This document shows positions 22,574 through 64,000 of a DNA stretch of 64,000 nucleotides, piece by piece. The stretch comes from Candidatus Saccharicenans sp. GTDB taxonomy: Bacteria; Acidobacteriota; Aminicenantia; Aminicenantales; Saccharicenantaceae. Under the pieces are notes generated by a model. It was not told the DNA's origin. It made no database searches and saw nothing but the letters and a program-made list of their open reading frames with translations. A program made the translations under genes and the position numbers. The stretch lies in contig JANLFU010000010.1 of assembly GCA_024653215.1 (NCBI GenBank), forward strand, positions 19,625-83,624, written 5' to 3'. Position 1 is the first letter of the stretch; every line of letters starts with the position of its first letter.

Positions 22574-22813
22574 ATGTCCGAACTTACACCAGATGTCACC
22601 CTCGATAACAGCGGGCTGGCCTGTCCCATGCCAATCATCAAGACCAAGAAGGCCATCGACGGGATGCAAGTCGGCCAGGTGCTGAAGATGATCGCCACCG
22701 ACCCCGGTTCCATCCCCGATGTCCAGGCCTGGGTCAGCAAGACCGGTCATGAACTTCTGAAGCATGAAACCGAGGGCAACAGGTTCATCTTCTACATCCG
22801 CAAGACAAAATAA
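22574..22813 (+). CDS. tusA: TusA-family sulfur carrier protein.
   Basis: LDNSGLACPMPIIKTKKAI contains the CPxP active-site cysteine motif of TusA/SirA. 79 aa. GGAGG RBS. Confidence 0.85.
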   Translation: MSELTPDVTLDNSGLACPMPIIKTKKAIDGMQVGQVLKMIATDPGSIPDVQAWVSKTGHELLKHETEGNRFIFYIRKTK

Positions 22814-23056: not shown

Positions 23057-23530
23057 ATGCCTGAAGGAAAAAAGAGACTGGCCATCATCTGCCTGCACGG
23101 CAGTCTTGACGTGGCCTTTGCCACCTTCGTCCTGGCCACGGCCGGGGCCGCCATGGAAATGGAGACCGCCGTTTATTTTGCCTTCTACGGGCTGGAAGTC
23201 CTCAAGAAGGGGAAAATCAACAAGCTCAAGGTTTCACCGCTGGCCAACCCGGCCATGCCGGTGAAAATTCCCAACATCATTGCCATGCTGCCCGGGATGA
23301 CCGCCGCGGCCACGGCCATGATGAAATCCTGGATGAAAAAATCCAAGGTGGCCACCCTGGGCGAACTGCTGGACACGGCCCGGGAACTGGGCGTCAGGCT
23401 TATTGCCTGCCAGATGAGCATGGACGTCATGGGGATCAAGAAGGAAGACCTCATAGACCGGGTTGAAATCGGCGGGGCGGCTACCTTCCTGGAATTTGCC
23501 AGCCAGGATGCCATCACCCTGACCTTTTAG
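23057..23530 (+). CDS. DsrE/DsrF-family sulfur-transfer protein (DsrE-like 1).
   Basis: DsrE/DsrF fold signature (LAIICLHGSLD..., conserved Cys in IACQMS). AGGAGG RBS. Confidence 0.7.
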   Translation: MPEGKKRLAIICLHGSLDVAFATFVLATAGAAMEMETAVYFAFYGLEVLKKGKINKLKVSPLANPAMPVKIPNIIAMLPGMTAAATAMMKSWMKKSKVATLGELLDTARELGVRLIACQMSMDVMGIKKEDLIDRVEIGGAATFLEFASQDAITLTF

Positions 23531-23539
23531 GAGGAAGCC

Positions 23540-23908
23540 ATGGCCGACGATAAAATCCTGATCATCATGACCAGTGGCCCGGACACACCCCGGCGCTGTG
23601 CCACACCCTTTTTCTTTGCCACTCTGGCCACCGCTATGGATTATGATGTCACCATGTTCTTCACCATTGACGGAACCCTGCTGCTCAAGAAAGGTCTGGC
23701 CGATACAGTTTTCCCCAAGGAAGGAGGCAAATCGGTCGGCGAATTCCTGAAAGAGGCCATGGACTCCGGGGTCAAGATGACCGCCTGCACCGCTTCCCTC
23801 GAACTTCACGGCCTGAGCCCGGAAGACCTGATTCCCGAGGTCAAGATGGTCGGTGGAGCTTCCATGTGGCAGATGGCCGAGGAAAGTAAGACTGTCTTAA
23901 CTTTCTGA
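23540..23908 (+). CDS. DsrE/DsrF-family sulfur-transfer protein (DsrE-like 2).
   Basis: ILIIMTSGPDTPRRCATPFFFA with a conserved cysteine. The 9-nt spacing from the previous gene indicates translational coupling. Confidence 0.7.
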   Translation: MADDKILIIMTSGPDTPRRCATPFFFATLATAMDYDVTMFFTIDGTLLLKKGLADTVFPKEGGKSVGEFLKEAMDSGVKMTACTASLELHGLSPEDLIPEVKMVGGASMWQMAEESKTVLTF

Positions 23909-23930: not shown

Positions 23931-24377
23931 ATGGCCATAATTCGCGGCTGTAACCTTCCCGAAGACCTCTACTATTACCCGGAAAAGCACCTGTGGCTAA
24001 AGCCGCTCGGTGGAAACCTCTTCCGTATCGGACTGACCCCCATCGCCGGAAAACTGGCCGGCGGTAAACTTAACGCAGTAACCATCAGGTCCAAGAACAT
24101 CGGCCAGGAAGTCCAGCATGGGAAAAGCCTGGCCACCCTGGAGAGCAGCAAGTACGTGGGTCCGGTGCCGGCTCCCATTACCGGCATCGTCAAGTCTGGA
24201 AACGACAGGCTGGCCGCCGACCCCAACCTGGTCATCAGCGACCCTTACGGCGAAGGCTGGGTGGCCGAGATCGAAGCCACGAAGTGGGACCAGGAAAAAG
24301 CTGCCCTGCTGACCGGGGCTGAAGGCCTGGCCGAATACGAAAAGAAACTGGCAGCGGCCGGGATCTCCTGCGGGTGA
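23931..24377 (+). CDS. GcvH-like lipoate-binding protein (LbpA-type) that is not part of a glycine cleavage operon.
   Basis: YYYPEKHLWLK matches the GcvH EHEWV motif, and TLESSKYVGPVPAPITGIV matches the lipoyl-lysine motif ESVKAxxDxYxPxxGxV. No gcvT/P is nearby. Confidence 0.75.
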   Translation: MAIIRGCNLPEDLYYYPEKHLWLKPLGGNLFRIGLTPIAGKLAGGKLNAVTIRSKNIGQEVQHGKSLATLESSKYVGPVPAPITGIVKSGNDRLAADPNLVISDPYGEGWVAEIEATKWDQEKAALLTGAEGLAEYEKKLAAAGISCG

Positions 24378-24456: not shown

Positions 24457-25608
24457 ATGAAGGAAAAAACGATTTATGAGCACTTGAGGGAAAAGGGGCT
24501 CTCCCGGCGGGACTTCATGAAACTCTGCGGCACCATTGCCGGTATGATGGGCCTGGAGTTCGTACCGCCGGTCAAAGCCCTGGGCAAAACACTCGGACCG
24601 AGCCCGGAAGAAGTGGTGGCTCAGGCCCTTAAGACCAAGCCGAAAGTTCCCATCATCTGGCTGGAGTTCCAGGACTGCGCCGGGTGCAGCGAAGCCATCT
24701 CCCGCTCCAGCTCTCCCCTTCTCAGCAACCTGGTCCTAAATGACATTGCCATCGAGTACCACGAAACCCTGATGGCTGCGGCCGGCTTCCAGGCCGAGAA
24801 GGCCAAGGAAGAATGCATGAAGAAATACTTCGGGAAATACGTGCTGGTGGTTGAGGGCAGCCCTACCCTGGCCGATGACGGCATCTACTGCACCGTGGCC
24901 GGAAAAAGTAACCTGGACCTGCTAAAGGAAGCTGCAGCCGGGGCTGCTGCCGTCATCGCCACCGGAAACTGCGCCTGCTTTGGCGGAATCCCGGCAGCCC
25001 ATCCCAACCCGACCAGGGCCGTCGGCGTGGCCGACCTCATCAAAGACAAACCCGTGGTCAACATACCGGGCTGCCCGGCCATTCCTGAAGTTACCACCGG
25101 AACCATACTCCATTTCCTCATCCTGGGCCAGTTGCCTGAGACTGACCAGCTGAAAAGGCCTTTGCCCTTCTATGGCCACACGGTTCACGACCACTGCCTG
25201 CGCCGGCCATTCTACGAAGCCGGAAAATTCGCCGGAAGCTTCGACGACGAAGGAGCCAGGAAAGGCTATTGTCTTTACCGACTCGGTTGCAAGGGCCCGA
25301 CCACTTACAATGCTTGCGCCGGCCTGAAGTGGGAACGCGGCCTTTCCTATCCCGTTCAATCCGGCCACCCCTGCCTCGGCTGTTCCGAGCCTCATTTCTG
25401 GGATGGCGGCGGCTTCTACCAGGGTCAGTCGGCTCCAATCGTACGGCTTGATAAAAGTTCCACGGCCACCCTGGTCGGAGTCGGCGTGGCGGCCGGGGCC
25501 GCCCTGGCTGGCCTCAACGCTGTCAAGAAGAGCCGGGCCAAAAAGGATCTGAAAAAAGATCAGTCTCAGGCCGCCGGGTCTGATCCCGGGTCAAAGAAGG
25601 AGGGCTGA
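24457..25608 (+). CDS. hynS: [NiFe] hydrogenase small subunit, TAT-exported, with a C-terminal membrane anchor.
   Basis: Twin-arginine signal SRRDFMKLCG. Fe-S cysteine clusters (CAGCSEA, GNCAC, CPAIPE, GCKGPTTYNACA, CLGCSEP). A C-terminal hydrophobic helix. Confidence 0.9.
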   Translation: MKEKTIYEHLREKGLSRRDFMKLCGTIAGMMGLEFVPPVKALGKTLGPSPEEVVAQALKTKPKVPIIWLEFQDCAGCSEAISRSSSPLLSNLVLNDIAIEYHETLMAAAGFQAEKAKEECMKKYFGKYVLVVEGSPTLADDGIYCTVAGKSNLDLLKEAAAGAAAVIATGNCACFGGIPAAHPNPTRAVGVADLIKDKPVVNIPGCPAIPEVTTGTILHFLILGQLPETDQLKRPLPFYGHTVHDHCLRRPFYEAGKFAGSFDDEGARKGYCLYRLGCKGPTTYNACAGLKWERGLSYPVQSGHPCLGCSEPHFWDGGGFYQGQSAPIVRLDKSSTATLVGVGVAAGAALAGLNAVKKSRAKKDLKKDQSQAAGSDPGSKKEG

Positions 25609-25609
25609 G

Positions 25610-26287
25610 ATGAACTGGACGAATATCTTGAATTTCAGCCGCGGGCCACTGCTTCATGTGGCCATGATAATTTTCGTGGCCGGCCTGAGCTACCGGCTGG
25701 TCCGGGTTCTTTTGCTCGGCTGGGCGAGAGACAGGGCTAAGAACAAGGGCAGCAAGCTCTGGGGGGTAATCGTCAATTACCTGAAGGGCCTTTTCGTCCT
25801 GCCGTTTATTCCCTGGGTCAGGCGCACCTTCCGCCACAACGAGCTGACCTTTATCGCCGGCGGGCTGTTCCACCTCAGCCTGTTCCTGGTCCTGGTTTTC
25901 GGCACGGCCCATATTTTAGTCTGGAAGAGCCTCTGGGGTTTCGGCTGGAAGGGCCTGCCAACGCCCATCCTGGCTTTCTTCTCGGCCGCGGGCATAATTT
26001 CCATGATTGTCCTGCTGATAAACCGGCTCACCCACCCGGTGTTAAAAATGCTGACCAGGTTCCCGGTCTGGATAAACTGGCTGGTGGTTTTCCTGCCGAT
26101 GATAACCGGCTTCATCATGGCCAGGCACCTGTGGTTCAGGTACGAGGTGATTTTCAGCCTGCACCTGATTTCGGTCAGCCTGCTTCTAATCTGGGTTCCC
26201 TTCGGCCGCATCTCCCACTTCCTGTTTTACTTCTTTTCCAAGACCATCCACGGAGCCCAGGCTGGTAAGCGCGCGGTAACGCCCTGA
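25610..26287 (+). CDS. isp1: Isp1-like di-haem cytochrome b membrane subunit (NarI/DsrM-like).
   Basis: 225 aa with 5-6 TM helices and conserved His in the helices. Its position between hynS and an HdrD-like gene matches the Isp-type hydrogenase architecture. Confidence 0.65.
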   Translation: MNWTNILNFSRGPLLHVAMIIFVAGLSYRLVRVLLLGWARDRAKNKGSKLWGVIVNYLKGLFVLPFIPWVRRTFRHNELTFIAGGLFHLSLFLVLVFGTAHILVWKSLWGFGWKGLPTPILAFFSAAGIISMIVLLINRLTHPVLKMLTRFPVWINWLVVFLPMITGFIMARHLWFRYEVIFSLHLISVSLLLIWVPFGRISHFLFYFFSKTIHGAQAGKRAVTP

Positions 26288-26301: not shown

Positions 26302-27567
26302 ATGAAAAGCCAGAAAACGCAATCAGCCATAAACACCTACCTTAAGGAGACAGGTGGCTGGGTGGCCAGTCAGCTTGAGGCCTGTACCCGCTGCGGCATC
26401 TGCGCCGAAGCCTGCCATTTCTACCAGGCCCTGGGCAATCCAGAATATGCTCCCATCTGGAAGCTGGAGCCGCTGCGCCGGGCCTATGAGCAGCGCTTCA
26501 CGGTGGCCGGCAAGCTGAAATTAGCCCTTGGCCTGGAGAAAAAGCTCGCCGACTCCGACCTGGAACACTGGAGCAAAATCGTCTACGAGGCCTGCACCGT
26601 CTGCAACAAGTGCGCCCATGTCTGCCCGATGGGCATCCAACTCGGGCCACTGATTCACGGGGTCAGAGCCGGGATGGCTGCGGCCGGAGTGGTGCCCGCG
26701 GACCTGGCCGAAGCCACGGAGAAGCAGAAAACCGTCGGCAGCCCGCTGGGGGTTACCGACGAAATGTGGCGGGAAAGAATCGACTGGATCACCGACGAAT
26801 GGGAAGCTCAAATACCAGTTGATAAGGCCGGGGCCGAGAGCCTGGTAGTTTTCACCTCAATTGAGCTTATGAAATTTCCGGATAACCTGGCCGCGGTGGC
26901 CAGGATTCTCAACAGGGCCGGAGAAAACTGGACGGTGAGCTCAACCGGCCGGGAAGTGGTTAACTTCGGCTACTTTGAAGCCGACGAGGAGCTGACCAGG
27001 CTTTTCATGTACCGGGTCTTCAAGGCGGCCGAGGAGCTGGGCGTCAAGCGGATCATCATCAGCGAATGCGGTCACGCCTACGACGCTTTTCGCTGGGCAG
27101 CACCCAACATGATGAAAGTTCCAAAGGGAGTGGAAATCGCCCACATCAGCGAGTACATCCACCAGCTCTGGAAGACCGGCCGGATCAAGCTCAAAGAAGG
27201 AGCCTTTGACGGGGAGACCATCACCTTCCACGACTCCTGCAAAATTCAGCGCCGCGGTGGCATCATCAAGCAGCCGCGGGAGCTGCTCAGGGTACTGGCT
27301 CCCAGGAGTTTCAAAGAAATGACGCCCAACAAGGAGCAGTCCCTGTGCTGCGGCGGCGGGGGCGGTGTCATCTCCATCAAGGAAGCCGACGCCAACCGCT
27401 ATGCCGTCTTCGAGATGAAAATTGAGCAGCTCCAGGAAGTCCAGGCCAGGGCCGTCTGCATGGTCTGCAGCAACTGCCGTTTGCAGTTCGTGGACAGCGT
27501 GGGGCATTTCAACCTGCCGGTAAAAGTCCACGGCCTGGCCGAGCTGGTTTCCAAGGCCCTGGTTTAA
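26302..27567 (+). CDS. isp2: Isp2-like HdrD/DsrK/GlpC-family Fe-S protein with a CCG domain.
   Basis: Two ferredoxin-like CxxCxxCxxxCP motifs (CTRCGICAEACHF; CTVCNKCAHVCPMG), plus CCG-domain cysteines (SCKIQ...CCGGGGG; CMVCSNC). Confidence 0.75.
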   Translation: MKSQKTQSAINTYLKETGGWVASQLEACTRCGICAEACHFYQALGNPEYAPIWKLEPLRRAYEQRFTVAGKLKLALGLEKKLADSDLEHWSKIVYEACTVCNKCAHVCPMGIQLGPLIHGVRAGMAAAGVVPADLAEATEKQKTVGSPLGVTDEMWRERIDWITDEWEAQIPVDKAGAESLVVFTSIELMKFPDNLAAVARILNRAGENWTVSSTGREVVNFGYFEADEELTRLFMYRVFKAAEELGVKRIIISECGHAYDAFRWAAPNMMKVPKGVEIAHISEYIHQLWKTGRIKLKEGAFDGETITFHDSCKIQRRGGIIKQPRELLRVLAPRSFKEMTPNKEQSLCCGGGGGVISIKEADANRYAVFEMKIEQLQEVQARAVCMVCSNCRLQFVDSVGHFNLPVKVHGLAELVSKALV

Positions 27568-27582: not shown

Positions 27583-27903
27583 ATGGCATCCTTTAATCTT
27601 ACCCCGGTGGAAAAAGGAATCCTCAGGTGCCGTCACACCGGCCCCTTTACCCCTGAGGACATTCAATCCCTGACGGTTTTCTTCAGGGAATACCACGGCA
27701 AGCTGCTGATAGACCTCAGCGGAACTGACCCGTCCGAATGCCTGCGGCACATCAGGCACATGAGGCCGATCATGCCAACCGCGGCCATTTTCGGGGCCGA
27801 AATAGACCCCAAAATTCTGGAGATAGACCGCAGTTACTACGCCAACGAGGTGCGCTGGTTCCGGACCGAAAAAGAAGCCCTGGAATGGCTTCGCAACCAG
27901 TAA
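27583..27903 (+). CDS. Hypothetical 106-aa protein inserted between isp2 and hynL.
   Basis: Strong RBS (GGAGGGG) and tight spacing in the operon. No recognisable family. Confidence 0.5.
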   Translation: MASFNLTPVEKGILRCRHTGPFTPEDIQSLTVFFREYHGKLLIDLSGTDPSECLRHIRHMRPIMPTAAIFGAEIDPKILEIDRSYYANEVRWFRTEKEALEWLRNQ

Positions 27904-27918
27904 TGGGAGGAGGACAAA

Positions 27919-29658
27919 ATGGCTAATCGAATCGTCATCGATCCTATAACCAGGATAGAAGGTCACTTAAGGATTGAAGCCGCGATCGATGGGAACAACA
28001 CCATCACCGAGGCCTACTCGGCTGGAACCATGGTTCGCGGCATCGAAAACATCCTGAAGAAGCGCGACCCGCGCGATGCCTGGGCCTTTGCCCAGAGAAT
28101 CTGCGGGGTTTGCACCACGGTCCATGCCATTGCCTCCATCCGGGCGGTAGAAGACGCGCTAGGCATAAACATTCCTAAAGCAGCCAACCTGATGCGAAAC
28201 ATGATCATCGCCCAGCAGTACATCCATGACCACGTGATGCATTTCTACATCCTGCACGCCCTGGATTTCGTGGACGTGGTCAGTGCCCTGAAAGCTGACC
28301 CGAAGAAAACCTCGGACATCCAGCAGAGCATCTCCGGCTGGCCCAAATCCTCCCCGGCCTACTTTGCCGAGGTCCAGAAAAAGGTTCAGGCCATCGTCGA
28401 TAGCGGCCAGCTATCGCTTTTCAGCAATGGCTACTGGGGGCACCCGGCCTACAAGCTCCCGCCGGAAATCAACCTGCTGGGCGTGGCTCACTACCTGGAG
28501 TGCCTGGACTGGCAGTCACAGGTGACCAAGATCCACACCATCTTCGGCGGCAAGAACCCGCATCCCAACTTCGTGGTGGGAGGGGTGCCGCTACCCATTG
28601 ACATGAACTCGGACCAGGCCCTGAACGCCGAGAAGCTGGCGGTGATAGCCGATTCCATCAAGAGGATGAACGACTTCGTTGACCAGGTTTACCTGCCGGA
28701 CCTGCTGGCCGTGGCTCCCTATTACCTGGAATATGCGGCGGTCGGCGAAGGGTTGGGTAATTTCCTGGCCTGGGGGGAATTTCCTGAAGGGCAGCTCAAC
28801 GAAATTGATAAGCTGATTTTCCCCAGGGGTGTCATCGTCAACCGTGACCTGAAGAACGTTATCGTGCCCGACCCGAGAGATGCGGCCAGGATGAAAGAAT
28901 TCATCACCCATAGCTGGTATAAGTACAGCCAGGGCGACGAAACGGGCCTGTTTCCCTGGGAAGGCGAAACAGTCTTTAATTACACGGGTCCAAGACCGCC
29001 TTACGAATACCTCAACGTCGAGGGCAAGTATTCCTGGTTGAAATCACCCCGCTGGAACGAGCTGCCGATGGAAGTCGGCCCCCTGGCCCGGGTGCTGATT
29101 CTTTATGCCACGGGGCACAAGGAGACGGTTGCCCTGGTCAACGCCGTTCTGGAAAAGCTCAGGGCTCCGGTCAGCGCCGTGTTTTCGACGCTCGGACGGA
29201 CGGCGGCCAGGGCCATTGAGACCAAGGTCATCGCCGGGCTGCTTCAGAAGTTCTATGACGAGCTGGTGGCCGAGATTAAAGCCGGAAACACCGACACCTT
29301 CAACGACGAAAAATGGGAGCCCCGGACCTGGCCGAAGAAGGCGCTCGGTTTCGGCTATACCGAGGCGCCGCGCGGAGCCCTGGGGCACTGGGTGGTGATA
29401 GAGAACAGGAAAATCAAGAATTACCAGATAGTGGTGCCGACCACCTGGAATGCTTCGCCCCGCGACCACAGGAACCAGGCCGGCGCCTATGAGGCTTCGC
29501 TGGTCGGAACTAGGCTGGCCAACCCCGAACAGCCGCTGGAGATTCTACGGACGCTTCATTCCTTCGACCCGTGCCTGGCCTGCGCCGTGCACCTGGTCGA
29601 CACCAGCGGGAAGAAGGTCGGAGAAGCGGCCACCGGCTTTAACCTGGTTGTCCGCTGA
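27919..29658 (+). CDS. hynL: [NiFe] hydrogenase large subunit.
   Basis: N-terminal RIEGH and RICGVC (CxxC) motifs. C-terminal DPCLACAVH (DPCxxCxxH), followed by a 21-aa extension that is the expected substrate of the maturation endopeptidase. Confidence 0.92.
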   Translation: MANRIVIDPITRIEGHLRIEAAIDGNNTITEAYSAGTMVRGIENILKKRDPRDAWAFAQRICGVCTTVHAIASIRAVEDALGINIPKAANLMRNMIIAQQYIHDHVMHFYILHALDFVDVVSALKADPKKTSDIQQSISGWPKSSPAYFAEVQKKVQAIVDSGQLSLFSNGYWGHPAYKLPPEINLLGVAHYLECLDWQSQVTKIHTIFGGKNPHPNFVVGGVPLPIDMNSDQALNAEKLAVIADSIKRMNDFVDQVYLPDLLAVAPYYLEYAAVGEGLGNFLAWGEFPEGQLNEIDKLIFPRGVIVNRDLKNVIVPDPRDAARMKEFITHSWYKYSQGDETGLFPWEGETVFNYTGPRPPYEYLNVEGKYSWLKSPRWNELPMEVGPLARVLILYATGHKETVALVNAVLEKLRAPVSAVFSTLGRTAARAIETKVIAGLLQKFYDELVAEIKAGNTDTFNDEKWEPRTWPKKALGFGYTEAPRGALGHWVVIENRKIKNYQIVVPTTWNASPRDHRNQAGAYEASLVGTRLANPEQPLEILRTLHSFDPCLACAVHLVDTSGKKVGEAATGFNLVVR

Positions 29659-30077: not shown

Positions 30078-30569
30078 ATGACCAAGAGAATTGTGGTGCT
30101 TGGAGTGGGAAACATCCTGAACCGGGATGAAGGAGCGGGAGTGCAGGCCCTAAAAGAACTGGAAAAAATTCTACCCGCTGGCCTGAAGCCGAAGGTTGAG
30201 CTGGTAGATGGCGGGGTGCTGGGGATGGACCTTCTCCCCTACGTGGAACGGGCCACTCACCTGCTCGTCCTGGATGCGGCGGATTTCCAGGGCCGGCCGG
30301 GAGAAATCCGGGAGTTTCCGGGAGGGGCGCTAAAAACATTTTTCTCAGGCAAGATTTCCTGGCACCAGCTCGGCTTCCAGGAGGTGCTGGAAGTAGCCCG
30401 GGTCAGAGGGCACTATCCGGGACAGGTTCACCTGATCGGCGTTCAGCCGGGGGACATGGAAGTCGGACTGGGCTTAAGCGAAGCTCTGGAGCTTTCCGTG
30501 AAGGACATGGCCAGAAGGGCCCTGGATATACTGAAAAACTGGCTCGAAGATACTGACCATGCAGGATAA
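30078..30569 (+). CDS. hynD: Hydrogenase maturation endopeptidase (HyaD/HybD/HynD family).
   Basis: IVVLGVGNILNRDEGAG ... LLVLDA is typical of the family. 163 aa. Confidence 0.8.
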   Translation: MTKRIVVLGVGNILNRDEGAGVQALKELEKILPAGLKPKVELVDGGVLGMDLLPYVERATHLLVLDAADFQGRPGEIREFPGGALKTFFSGKISWHQLGFQEVLEVARVRGHYPGQVHLIGVQPGDMEVGLGLSEALELSVKDMARRALDILKNWLEDTDHAG

Positions 30570-30906
30570 ATTCCGGAGGATTACCCCTCAAATAAAAATG
30601 TTAACTTGCACCATCTACAGGTCCAGGACCAAGTACAGGAAACAGAAGAGTCACCATGCGCTTCAGGTTCAAGTGGCAGCAAGAATCCTGCCTGTGCGAA
30701 GTCTTAATCAAAGGCTTCTGGCCTTTACCAGATATTCAGCTCCAGAAACCCGAACTCTGAAGCCTGGATTGAGGCATTAATAAAACAAATTTCCGAGGGA
30801 TTGATTTATAAAACTAAATAAGGCAAAAAAGGCATTAATTACCAAAATGGGGCTAATCAAAAAACAAACGATAAATCATCTTAAGGACCTGGAAAGGAAA
30901 TAAAGG

Positions 30907-32007
30907 ATGGACGGGAATCATAGGAAAAGAATAAGGGGCATCGACCTGGGGGAAGTGCCGGCCGTTAGGTCGCAGACTTGCTACCATGCTGTCGGCTACG
31001 CCTTTGGACCCAAAACTCCTGATACCATCATCCTGGTCAGCCCCGCGAGTCCCTATGTCTGTGTCGGCTTCCACCAGGAAGCGGAGAGGGAAGTTGACCT
31101 GGAATACTGCCGGCAGGCCGGGCTGCCCGTCTACCGGCGCGAAGTCGGAGGCGGCGCTGTCTATCTCGACCGGAACCAGCTTTTCGTGCAGTGGATTTTC
31201 CACCCGGAAAGCCTGCCCCTCGAGCTTGAGGATAAATTCAGGTTCTACGTTGAGCCAATTATCCTCACCTACCGGGAGCTGGGAATTGAGGCCTCTTACC
31301 GCCCGGTTAATGACATCCACGTAGCCGGAAAGAAAATCGGAGGCACGGGCGCGGCCAGGATCGGCCAGGCGGACATCCTGGTCGGAAGTTTCATGTTTGA
31401 TTTTGATAAGAAAACGATGGCCAGGGTGCTCCGGGTTTCCTCAGAAAAGATGCGTGACAAGGTCTTCCAGAGCCTGGAGCAGTATATGACCACGATGAAA
31501 GAACTGTTGCCGGAACTTCCCGCCAGAGAGATTGTTAAGAGAATTTATCTGAATAAGGTGGCAGAACTGCTGGAAGCCGAAGTAGAGGCAGGCGGAATGT
31601 GCGAGGCAGAACTTCAAGAGGCGGAAAGGCTGGACCGCCTTTTCCAGAGCGAGGACTGGATTTTCCAGAAGGGACCGCTGCGCCGGCCTTCCGTCAAGAT
31701 CCACGAAGATGTCCACGTGCGCGAGGTGGATTATAAAGCTCCGGGCGGATTGATCAGGTTGACAGCCAGGATCAGGACGGAGGGCGGAAAACCGATCCTG
31801 GATTCGGTCTGGATTTCCGGCGACTTCACCGCCATTCCCAAGGAAGGTATATTCATCCTGGAAGATAGGCTGCGGGGTATTGCCATCGAGGAAAAAAGCA
31901 TCGGTGAAGCGGTCTGCCGGGCTCTTGGAGAATCGGGGCTGCAGTGTCCCGGACTGACAGAACAGAGCTGGATTTCTGCCCTGCTCAGGCTGACCGATTC
32001 CGGGTAA
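30907..32007 (+). CDS. lplA: Lipoate-protein ligase A family protein.
   Basis: HVAGKKIGGTGAARIG matches the LplA lysine-loop motif (GRKISGSAQ). 366 aa with a C-terminal accessory domain. Confidence 0.7.
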   Translation: MDGNHRKRIRGIDLGEVPAVRSQTCYHAVGYAFGPKTPDTIILVSPASPYVCVGFHQEAEREVDLEYCRQAGLPVYRREVGGGAVYLDRNQLFVQWIFHPESLPLELEDKFRFYVEPIILTYRELGIEASYRPVNDIHVAGKKIGGTGAARIGQADILVGSFMFDFDKKTMARVLRVSSEKMRDKVFQSLEQYMTTMKELLPELPAREIVKRIYLNKVAELLEAEVEAGGMCEAELQEAERLDRLFQSEDWIFQKGPLRRPSVKIHEDVHVREVDYKAPGGLIRLTARIRTEGGKPILDSVWISGDFTAIPKEGIFILEDRLRGIAIEEKSIGEAVCRALGESGLQCPGLTEQSWISALLRLTDSG

Positions 32008-32368
32008 ATTGCGGTTGGCCCCTGCCCCCGAAGCAGATAATATGCATCAAGGCGGAGCAAAAAATTATAAAGGCTCTTGGTCGCCGGATTTATTGATTAT
32101 CGAGTGGGGTTTATAGGTTTTCTTTCAGCCAAAGTATATAAAATGAATTTTTCACCGGGGAAGCCGGCAAATGACCTTCTCAAAGTCTGTATCAAAGACT
32201 TAACCGTGTTTCGTTGTATATCCGTCTGCCTGGCCGGCTCTCAACTTCCTCATAATAATAACGATACAGGAAAAAATACCCCAGGCTGCCAGGTAAATAA
32301 ATTCGGGTTTTTAAGTTGCCTATTATCAGGTAGCCGTCTATAATAGAAAATAAGGCAGGAGGTAAAAC

Positions 32369-32863
32369 ATGATCAGCAAAAAGATGGAAGAAGCCATCAA
32401 CAAACAGATCAACGAGGAGATGTATTCGGCCTATCTTTATCTGTCGATGGCCGGGTACTTTGCCGAGCAGAACCTGATGGGTTTCCACAACTGGCTGTAT
32501 GTTCAGTACCACGAAGAGCTGGAGCATGCCGAGAAATTCTACAAGTATCTGGTGGAACGCGGCGGGCAGGTCAGGCTGGCCGCTATCAAGGAACCCGAGC
32601 ACACCTGGAAAAACGCCAGGGATGCCTTCGAGGCGGTCCTCAAGCACGAACGGCACATTACCGGCAGGATTAACGAGCTGGTGGACATAGCCGAAGCAGA
32701 AAAGGACCGGGCTTCTTTCGCCATGCTGCAGTGGTTCGTCAACGAGCAGGTCGAAGAAGAAGCTAACGCCCAGGACATCCTGTCCAAGCTGGAGATGGTG
32801 GGCGACCACAAGCAGGGCCTGCTGATGATCGACCGGGCCCTGGCCGAACGGAAAAAAGGCTGA
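32369..32863 (+). CDS. ftn: Non-haem ferritin.
   Basis: EEMYSAYLYLSMAGYF ... EELEHAEKF ... LQWFVNEQVEEE are ferroxidase-centre ligand motifs. 164 aa. Confidence 0.85.
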   Translation: MISKKMEEAINKQINEEMYSAYLYLSMAGYFAEQNLMGFHNWLYVQYHEELEHAEKFYKYLVERGGQVRLAAIKEPEHTWKNARDAFEAVLKHERHITGRINELVDIAEAEKDRASFAMLQWFVNEQVEEEANAQDILSKLEMVGDHKQGLLMIDRALAERKKG

Positions 32864-32869
32864 CAAAAA

Positions 32870-32907
32870 AGGGGGACACAATATCGTGTCCCCCGTTCTA
32901 TTTTTTC
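32870..32907. terminator. Bidirectional rho-independent terminator shared by ftn (+) and the transglutaminase-like gene (-).
   Basis: GGGGGACAC-aatatc-GTGTCCCCC is a perfect 9-bp stem. It is preceded by an A-run and followed by TTCTATTTTTT. Confidence 0.75.
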
Positions 32908-63280: not shown

Positions 63281-63808
63281 ATGACCCAAAAGAACGGTAA
63301 GCCTGTTGATTCAGGCCAGGCGAGTCCCTTCAGCTCGAAAATTGACTATGAAGAACTCCGAAAGCTGATCTCACTCCTTGAAGAGAAAAACCTCACCCAG
63401 TTCGAGCTGGAAGTGGAAGGTTTCAAGATAAAACTGAGCCGCAGCCTGGGCAATTCGTCAGGCCCGGCCCAGGTGATGTTTACCCCGGCCATGCCGGAAG
63501 CCGCGGCCAAGATTATGGCCACCAACGGCGACATTCCCGCCCCGACCCCGGCTGAAGACAAGAACATACATTACGTGACTTCGCCCATGGTCGGAACCTT
63601 TTACCGGGCGCCTTCTCCCACCTCTCCCCCCTTCGTGGACATAGGCGATCCAGTCAAGAAGGGCCAGACCCTGTGCATCGTGGAAGCCATGAAGTTGATG
63701 AATGAGATCGAGTGCGACGTCAACGGCCTGGTAGTCGATATCCTGGTGGAAAACGGGAAACCGGTTGAATACGGGCAGAAACTCTTTGCCATCAAAGTGA
63801 GCGCCTGA
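63281..63808 (+). CDS. accB: Acetyl-CoA carboxylase biotin carboxyl carrier protein.
   Basis: [10 protein letters not shown] is the biotinyl-lysine motif. A Pro/Ala-rich linker. 175 aa. Confidence 0.88.
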
Positions 63809-63813
63809 GAAAC

Positions 63814-64000
63814 ATGTTCTCCAAGATTCTGGTGGCCAACCGGGGCGAAATCGCCTTAAGAATCATCAGGTCCTGCAAAGAGCTGGGCATCAAGACCGTA
63901 GCAGTCTTCTCCGAAGCCGACCGCAATTCTCTCCACGCCATGCTGGCCGACGAGAGTATCTGCATCGGGCCGGCCAAGGCTTCAGACAGCTACCTCAACA
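63814..64000 (+). CDS. accC: Biotin carboxylase, 5' fragment. It runs off the window end and is absent from the ORF track because it has no stop.
   Basis: [41 protein letters not shown] matches the AccC N-terminus. It begins 6 nt after accB. Confidence 0.8.

Follow-up and report, generated by a model that had tools for sequence, protein, structure and literature searches.

An Isp-type [NiFe] hydrogenase locus in Candidatus Saccharicenans sp. ends in a gene for a ligase of the LplA family, which raises the question of what this enzyme loads: a carrier protein encoded with the hydrogenase, or the lipoyl proteins of ordinary metabolism. We analyzed a stretch of 64,000 nucleotides around this gene (the window) together with the genome that holds it (2.6 Mb, 92% complete) and its relatives. 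The most likely answer is that the ligase loads the operon's own carrier and does not serve ordinary metabolism.

The ligase and the genes around it

Positions 30907-32007 of the plus strand hold an intact open frame of 366 codons, on the same strand as hynD, which bears out the preliminary description of an LplA-family ligase with a lysine loop. The 366-residue product scores over the curated cut-off for the LplA/LipB/LipM superfamily (PF21948/PF03099), with the catalytic domain PF21948 (LplA-B_cat) matching residues 36-213 at 132.5 bits against a cut-off of 27. The TIGR00545 LplA equivalog model aligns over positions 29-306 of its 328, at 126.9 bits, far below its cut-off of 280. The lysine loop, HVAGKKIGGTGAARIG, occupies residues 138-153; K143 aligns with K133 of E. 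coli LplA, and the RRxxGGGAV motif (R77-V85) likewise aligns to E. coli residues. Both are invariant in 20 homologues down to 55% identity; the invariant motifs, RREVGGGAVYLD and GKKIGGTGAA, include the lysine equivalent to K133. Behind the catalytic domain the protein carries a fused C-terminal accessory domain of the LplB kind, as Lpl(AB) enzymes do; the accessory-domain model NF053749 covers residues 275-353 with 30.9 bits, below its cut-off of 65, and PF10437 is recorded for many homologues. In a comparison with the PDB, 1vqz aligned to residues 37-334, the best match was a pneumococcal ligase at 89 bits, and E. coli LplA was absent among the matches. Homologues with a named source belong to Candidatus Saccharicenans and other Aminicenantes. 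In-frame TAA codons flagged in the ligase of two relatives were natural stop codons past which the aligner had read. Judged by its family, the protein is a real lipoate/octanoate-protein ligase.

The ligase gene closes a conserved block in the order tusA-dsrE2-dsrE-lbpA-hynS-isp1-isp2-orf106-hynL-hynD-lpl:

22574..22813, plus strand: tusA-like sulfur carrier gene, first of the conserved block (NF001423 TusA, 60.9 bits, below the cut-off of 78)
23057..23530, plus strand: DsrE2-like sulfur transferase (PF13686, 156 bits; NF047629, 158 bits, below the cut-off of 210)
23540..23908, plus strand: DsrE-family sulfur transferase (PF02635, 75 bits)
23931..24377, plus strand: LbpA-type lipoate-binding protein, proposed substrate of the ligase (PF01597, 89.6 bits)
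24457..25608, plus strand: [NiFe] hydrogenase small subunit HynS (PF01058, PF14720)
25610..26287, plus strand: Isp1 membrane anchor, TmcC/HmcE-like (NF045723, 110 bits, below cut-off)
26302..27567, plus strand: Isp2, an HdrD/DsrK-like Fe-S protein with CCG domains (PF02754 CCG and a 4Fe-4S dicluster)
27583..27903, plus strand: conserved 106-aa ORF between isp2 and hynL (weak SpoIIAA-like match)
27919..29658, plus strand: [NiFe] hydrogenase large subunit HynL (PF00374, 756 bits)
30078..30569, plus strand: hydrogenase maturation protease HynD (PF01750 HycI, 91 bits)
30570..30906, no strand: AT-rich spacer of 337 nt between hynD and the ligase gene (GC 0.40)
30907..32007, plus strand: Lpl(AB)-type lipoate/octanoate:protein ligase, last conserved gene of the block

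The tusA-like gene is syntenic in all full-length loci, and the 106-aa ORF is kept at 54-99% identity in most Hyn-type loci. Isp2 reaches 225 bits against the DsrK model NF045796, below its cut-off.

The spacer is AT-rich as first described (40% GC, against about 0.53-0.58 in the flanking genes), but it measures 337 nt and not 340. We found no terminator-like hairpin and no sigma-70-like site within it, and the sole plus-strand terminator-like site lies at 32871-32894, 3' of a ferritin gene. In distant relatives roughly 1-80 nt separate hynD from the ligase gene, in four loci of three other Aminicenantia genera about 1-45 nt, and inside the genus 70-600 nt; with a spacer of 337 nt, the ligase gene may or may not be co-transcribed with the hydrogenase genes in Saccharicenans. 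Throughout this genus, but not in other genera, an 88-codon ORF (32077-32343) and the ferritin gene (32369-32863) follow downstream in the same orientation, and the ligase gene may be transcribed with ferritin there.

The carrier and its co-occurrence with the ligase

The proposed substrate, the LbpA-type protein, is encoded 6.5 kb upstream of the ligase gene. It scores 64.6 bits against the TIGR00527 gcvH model, below the cut-off of 115.85, has cysteines at positions 7 and 147 and a pI of 6.73, and its lipoyl lysine is Lys74 by alignment. The single true GcvH of the genome passes the same equivalog (161.6 bits against 115.85), contains no cysteine and has a pI of 4.69. GcvH proteins are described as acidic and LbpAs as not, with two near-terminal cysteines in the latter (Kumpel et al. 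2026, preprint 10.64898/2026.10.01.755906). GcvH and LbpA are the only two proteins of this fold found in the genome, and no further lipoyl domain scores above cut-off there besides AccB. The gene for AccB (TIGR00531, 171 bits) lies with the start of accC at the end of the window, 63281-64000; AccB is the only strong Biotin_lipoyl match in the genome and carries biotin, not lipoate.

The preliminary description had set its proposal against the picture of a housekeeping enzyme that is the sole lipoate ligase of its genome, with 2-oxoacid dehydrogenase E2 genes nearby. The genome presents a different one. It encodes two PF21948 proteins, the ligase, which is its only ligase-type enzyme with an accessory domain, and on a different contig a 270-aa LipM-like transferase, a second lipoate-attachment enzyme that is accompanied by one LipA (359 bits). 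A search for E2 (PF00198) gave no match in any of 26 genomes of the genus, this one and 25 others; E2 is present in many other genera that lack the ligase. A published table scores most Saccharicenans genomes as having 'E2' (Tanabe et al. 2023, S2 Table, PMC10332631), which disagrees with the absence of a match in our 26 (G000-G025). The published E2 model may match something else.

The parallel with the sHdr systems that the preliminary description took as its paradigm is partial. The pairing of a ligase with LbpA holds here, but the suggested genome search for the radical-SAM partners lipS1 and lipS2 found neither: the best scores were 20 bits for LipS1 (NF053742, cut-off 230) and 26 bits for LipS2 (NF053743, cut-off 270), and a BioB-family search for LipS candidates returned only LipA, MoaA and unrelated radical SAM proteins. 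LipS1 is also absent from five other genomes with a ligase of the window type, and LipA is found in all six. With LipS1 missing from all six carriers, LipS2 missing from this genome and LipA present in all six, this is a ligase-plus-LipA variant of the sHdr paradigm.

The distribution of the ligase follows that of the carrier. Among 61 Aminicenantia genomes, 23 contain the ligase and exactly those 23 contain the GcvH-like carrier; both are missing from the other 38, a split that overstates the number of independent events because these genomes are kin. The LipM-like transferase, by comparison, occurs in 59 of the 61 and is kept by 36 of the 38 without ligase. In all 14 loci that we fetched, from 14 Aminicenantia genomes, the eleven genes keep their order, with the ligase gene immediately 3' of hynD; three other genera contribute four of these loci, at 55-58% identity and with different flanking genes. 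A published tally agrees independently with the co-occurrence: of 11 Saccharicenans genomes, 9 are scored for LplA, and 8 of these 9 also for LbpA1 (Tanabe et al. 2023, S2 Table, PMC10332631). The same table scores LipS1, LipS2, LipT and sHdr as 0 in all 11 Saccharicenans rows, and LipA, LipM and GcvH as present in nearly all listed Aminicenantia, with or without the ligase.

Relatives of the ligase across phyla

We built trees of the ligase and its relatives with LplA proteins of E. coli, Enterococcus and Listeria, the PDH-linked LplA of Desulfotalea, haloarchaeal and Thermomicrobium LplA, two Lpl(BA), the LipM-like protein of the genome and six ligases from LipS1/S2 cassettes. In these trees, 82 members of the ligase clade form one group on a long branch, split from the E. 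coli, Enterococcus, Listeria and Desulfotalea LplA with an SH-aLRT of 96-97 and a concordant FastTree topology; the supports come from quick IQ-TREE SH-aLRT and FastTree runs only, with the deep nodes on long branches. The phylogenetic check proposed at the outset, together with the TIGR00545 score, thus separates the ligase from housekeeping LplA. The clade is joined to 326-335 aa paralogues from LipS1/S2 cassettes with a support of 100 (IQ-TREE quick). FastTree adds the 366-383 aa Lpl(AB) encoded next to lipS1 (support 1.0), a node that IQ-TREE quick leaves open. In a search for characterized sLpl(AB) anchors of the kind of TK90_0642, a plasmid collection offered only Lpl(BA), Firmicute and haloarchaeal ligases, none of them sHdr-linked, and the matches of a protein search with a LipS-linked ligase of Chloroflexota were all unnamed or from Chloroflexota MAGs.

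A scan with one genome per species recovered 80 loci of the clade at 52-96% identity, from MAGs labeled Acidobacteriota, Calditrichia, Ignavibacteriota, Bacteroidetes, Chloroflexota, Actinomycetota and Syntrophales, and we mapped the window's proteins onto them to read the gene context. This ligase clade (52-59% identity) recurs in two settings. One is the Hyn-Isp hydrogenase block. The other consists of genes for HdrB-like, short HdrA-like, HdrC/B-fusion, EtfB, EtfA and 699-aa CCG proteins, followed by two lbpA genes and the ligase gene, and fits the published type II sHdr layout, shdrC1B1AHB3-etfAB-emo (PMC11094781). The nearest relatives of the Hyn-block ligases outside Hyn blocks adjoin two lbpA genes in such type II sHdr clusters. 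Ligases linked to Hyn and to sHdr intermingle within the clade, and the labels need at least 8 and at least 10 changes on the tree. LbpA or the Hyn block lies beside the ligase in 69 of 72 informative loci.

Several loci depart from these arrangements. The ligase stands without an LbpA, Hyn or sHdr gene within 10 kb on each side in L108 and L127, labeled as Chloroflexota classes, and in L128, labeled Actinomycetota; a carrier for these three, if there is one, lies elsewhere. An Anaerolineae MAG (L074:10001-21058) has the ligase gene at the front of the block, before tusA, with the linkage kept and the order changed. The Hyn block of L068 matches as numerous short fragments with frameshifts, a pattern that suggests a long-read assembly rich in errors, not decaying genes.

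The residues through which E. coli LplA contacts GcvH also distinguish this clade. At the positions of R47, R140, K143, K175 and K272 the window ligase has F, A, G, K and K. Throughout the clade the first three are F/Y, A and G, so that three of the five contacts are uncharged, and the fourth (K175) is kept as Lys. The sLpl(AB) of Roseovarius mucosus has Leu, Phe, Gly, His and Gly at these positions (preprint 10.64898/2026.10.01.755906), and the first three residues of the clade mirror its Leu, Phe and Gly.

These data bear on the possibility that the protein is a general salvage ligase, which scavenges free lipoate for GcvH and stands beside the hydrogenase by chance or through a rearrangement specific to the genus. 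As the only Lpl(AB)-type ligase of its genome, it may indeed salvage lipoate for GcvH too; the 337-nt spacer sets its gene apart from hynD, and a ferritin gene conserved in the genus comes next. However, the ligase gene retains its place behind hynD in other genera and phyla with different flanking genes, and the ligase is absent from all 38 relatives that lack LbpA, though 36 of those keep the LipM-like transferase. LipA and GcvH, moreover, occur in nearly all Aminicenantia whether or not the ligase does (Tanabe 2023, S2 Table, PMC10332631). With a score far under the LplA equivalog cut-off and three of the five basic GcvH-contact residues missing, we regard a salvage enzyme as unlikely.

Chloroflexota provide a second version of the same arrangement. 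LipS1 occurs in 7-10 of 301 genomes of this phylum. In one of them (G177) a complete tusA-dsrE2-dsrE-lbpA-hynS-isp1-isp2-hynL-hynD block is followed, 3' of hynD, by hypB, a second lbpA-like gene, a 383-aa Lpl(AB), LipS1, LipS2 and a 326-aa ligase paralogue; in another (G173), dsrE-lbpA-hynS-isp1-isp2-hynL-hynD is followed by an lbpA-like gene, a 366-aa Lpl(AB), LipS1 and a 326-aa paralogue. LipA is present in both genomes as well. The slot behind hynD thus holds either a single ligase gene or a whole set of genes for lipoate assembly. The 326-335 aa paralogues lie at the far end of Chloroflexota lbpA-Lpl(AB)-lipS1-lipS2 cassettes (L152:3805-4785, minus strand; L151:8107-9114, plus strand; L150:8226-9206, plus strand) and form the nearest outgroup to the window's ligase clade. 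Where the catalytic Lys aligns they carry Arg (KR versus KK), and so may not be ordinary ligases.

This substitution invites a second alternative, in which the window protein is an acyl- or amidotransferase like LipL or LipM that moves octanoyl or lipoyl groups from GcvH or acyl-ACP to LbpA. Its closest out-paralogues, at 326-335 aa, have Arg in place of the catalytic Lys, and the chemistry of the lineage may have changed; GcvH is, besides, an obligate relay in pathways of the B. subtilis type. The ligase itself, however, retains both the catalytic Lys and the C-terminal accessory domain, the two elements that adenylation requires in known LplA/LplAB enzymes. Its only cysteines are at positions 25, 52, 68, 232, 337 and 347, and none lies between residues 69 and 231, the region in which the acyl-thioester Cys of LipB, LipM and LipL lies. 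The absence of this Cys from the catalytic core agrees with an Lpl(AB)-type enzyme as opposed to LipM/LipL/LipB, and a transferase seems very improbable to us. Least probable, with hardly any weight in our view, is that the ligase serves another, unrecognized lipoyl acceptor or handles a cofactor besides lipoate or octanoate: the clade is divergent (at most 89 bits to any solved ligase) and the role of LbpA beside the hydrogenase is itself putative, but the genome has just two GcvH-fold proteins and, AccB excepted, no lipoyl domain over cut-off, and the lipoate-binding motifs of the ligase are conserved.

Among known enzymes, the closest counterpart of the window ligase is sLpl(AB), the LbpA-specific lipoate:protein ligase of sHdr sulfur oxidizers (PMC6067878; PMC10332631; preprint 10.64898/2026.10.01.755906). 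Like sLpl(AB), it has fused catalytic and accessory domains, uncharged residues at three basic GcvH-contact positions of E. coli LplA, and a gene that clusters with lbpA, tusA and dsrE; the linked carrier is of the LbpA type, with two terminal cysteines and a pI above 4.5. It also coexists with a canonical LipM/LipA/GcvH pathway, and its closest relatives are found in type II sHdr clusters. Unlike sLpl(AB), it occurs in a genome without LipS1 and LipS2, where LipA is the only lipoyl synthase; its block contains no sHdr genes (sHdr is 0 for the genus in Tanabe's S2 Table, PMC10332631), and its partner is an Isp-type [NiFe] hydrogenase. Its closer neighbor in the trees is the 326-335 aa paralogue, and the 366-383 aa Lpl(AB) encoded beside lipS1 stands farther off. 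With the housekeeping type, E. coli LplA and B. subtilis LplJ (TIGR00545; clade 2 of Tanabe et al. 2023), the ligase shares its superfamily, two-domain layout, catalytic Lys and RRxxGGGAV motif, as well as occurrence in a bacterium with LipA and without LipS. It differs from that type in its score (127 bits against a cut-off of 280) and separate place in the trees, in having no linkage to E2 or GcvH genes, and in a distribution that tracks LbpA and not central metabolism.

A ligase proposed for the carrier of a hydrogenase

Because it travels as the last gene of an LbpA-encoding hydrogenase operon in several phyla, we consider it probable that the enzyme is an ATP-dependent lipoate/octanoate:protein ligase dedicated to loading the LbpA encoded in the same block. 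Its substrate specificity and acyl donor are inferred, as are the LipA step and what lipoyl-LbpA does. The ligase would activate free lipoate or octanoate to an acyl-AMP and pass the acyl group on to LbpA, at the lysine that alignment marks as the lipoyl site (Lys74); the housekeeping LipM-like transferase presumably does not recognize LbpA. If octanoate were used, the genome's single LipA would insert the two sulfurs, since LipS1/LipS2 are missing. Lipoyl-LbpA would then work with the TusA and DsrE carriers and with the HdrD-like Isp2 of the hydrogenase.

This agrees with the original proposal that a locus-specific enzyme lipoylates the GcvH-like protein. The co-occurrence in 23 of 61 genomes and the linkage across phyla support it, with lipoylation as a prediction, and they likewise support a putative role for lipoate as a working cofactor of the hydrogenase-linked system. 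In the literature that we searched, we found no paper that connects an Isp-type hydrogenase with LbpA or with a lipoate ligase. The nearest precedent for LbpA beside a redox enzyme other than sHdr is R. mucosus, in which an LbpA1-like protein is encoded beside formate dehydrogenase genes with sLpl-LipS1/S2 and without sHdr (preprint 10.64898/2026.10.01.755906). There, too, an LbpA-type carrier with its own ligase accompanies a redox enzyme besides sHdr, but that enzyme is a formate dehydrogenase and not a hydrogenase, and LipS1/S2 are present.

That a carrier-specific ligase closes the operon in several phyla argues strongly, on genomic grounds, that the operon's GcvH-like protein needs lipoylation to function, and the exchange of the single gene for a complete ligase-LipS1-LipS2 cassette in some Chloroflexota points the same way. 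The finding extends LbpA-type lipoate biology beyond sulfur oxidation. It also suggests LbpA proteins as possible clients of LipA, a point of relevance for the sHdr bacteria, roughly 26%, in which LipS1/S2 are reported missing (PMC10332631). More tentatively, and at somewhat less than even chances, the clade may be an LbpA-specific branch of ligases that does without LipS1/LipS2 and hands octanoyl-LbpA to the ordinary LipA, a cassette that moves with LbpA between two redox machines of the HdrB/HdrD type, the type II sHdr complex and the Isp-type hydrogenase. Isp2 of Isp-type (group 1e) [NiFe] hydrogenases has, to our knowledge, no known cytoplasmic partner. If such a branch exists, protein-bound lipoate would be the physiological dithiol/disulfide or sulfane-sulfur substrate of Isp2, and H2-driven reduction of carrier-bound sulfur would be the function of this widespread class of hydrogenases.
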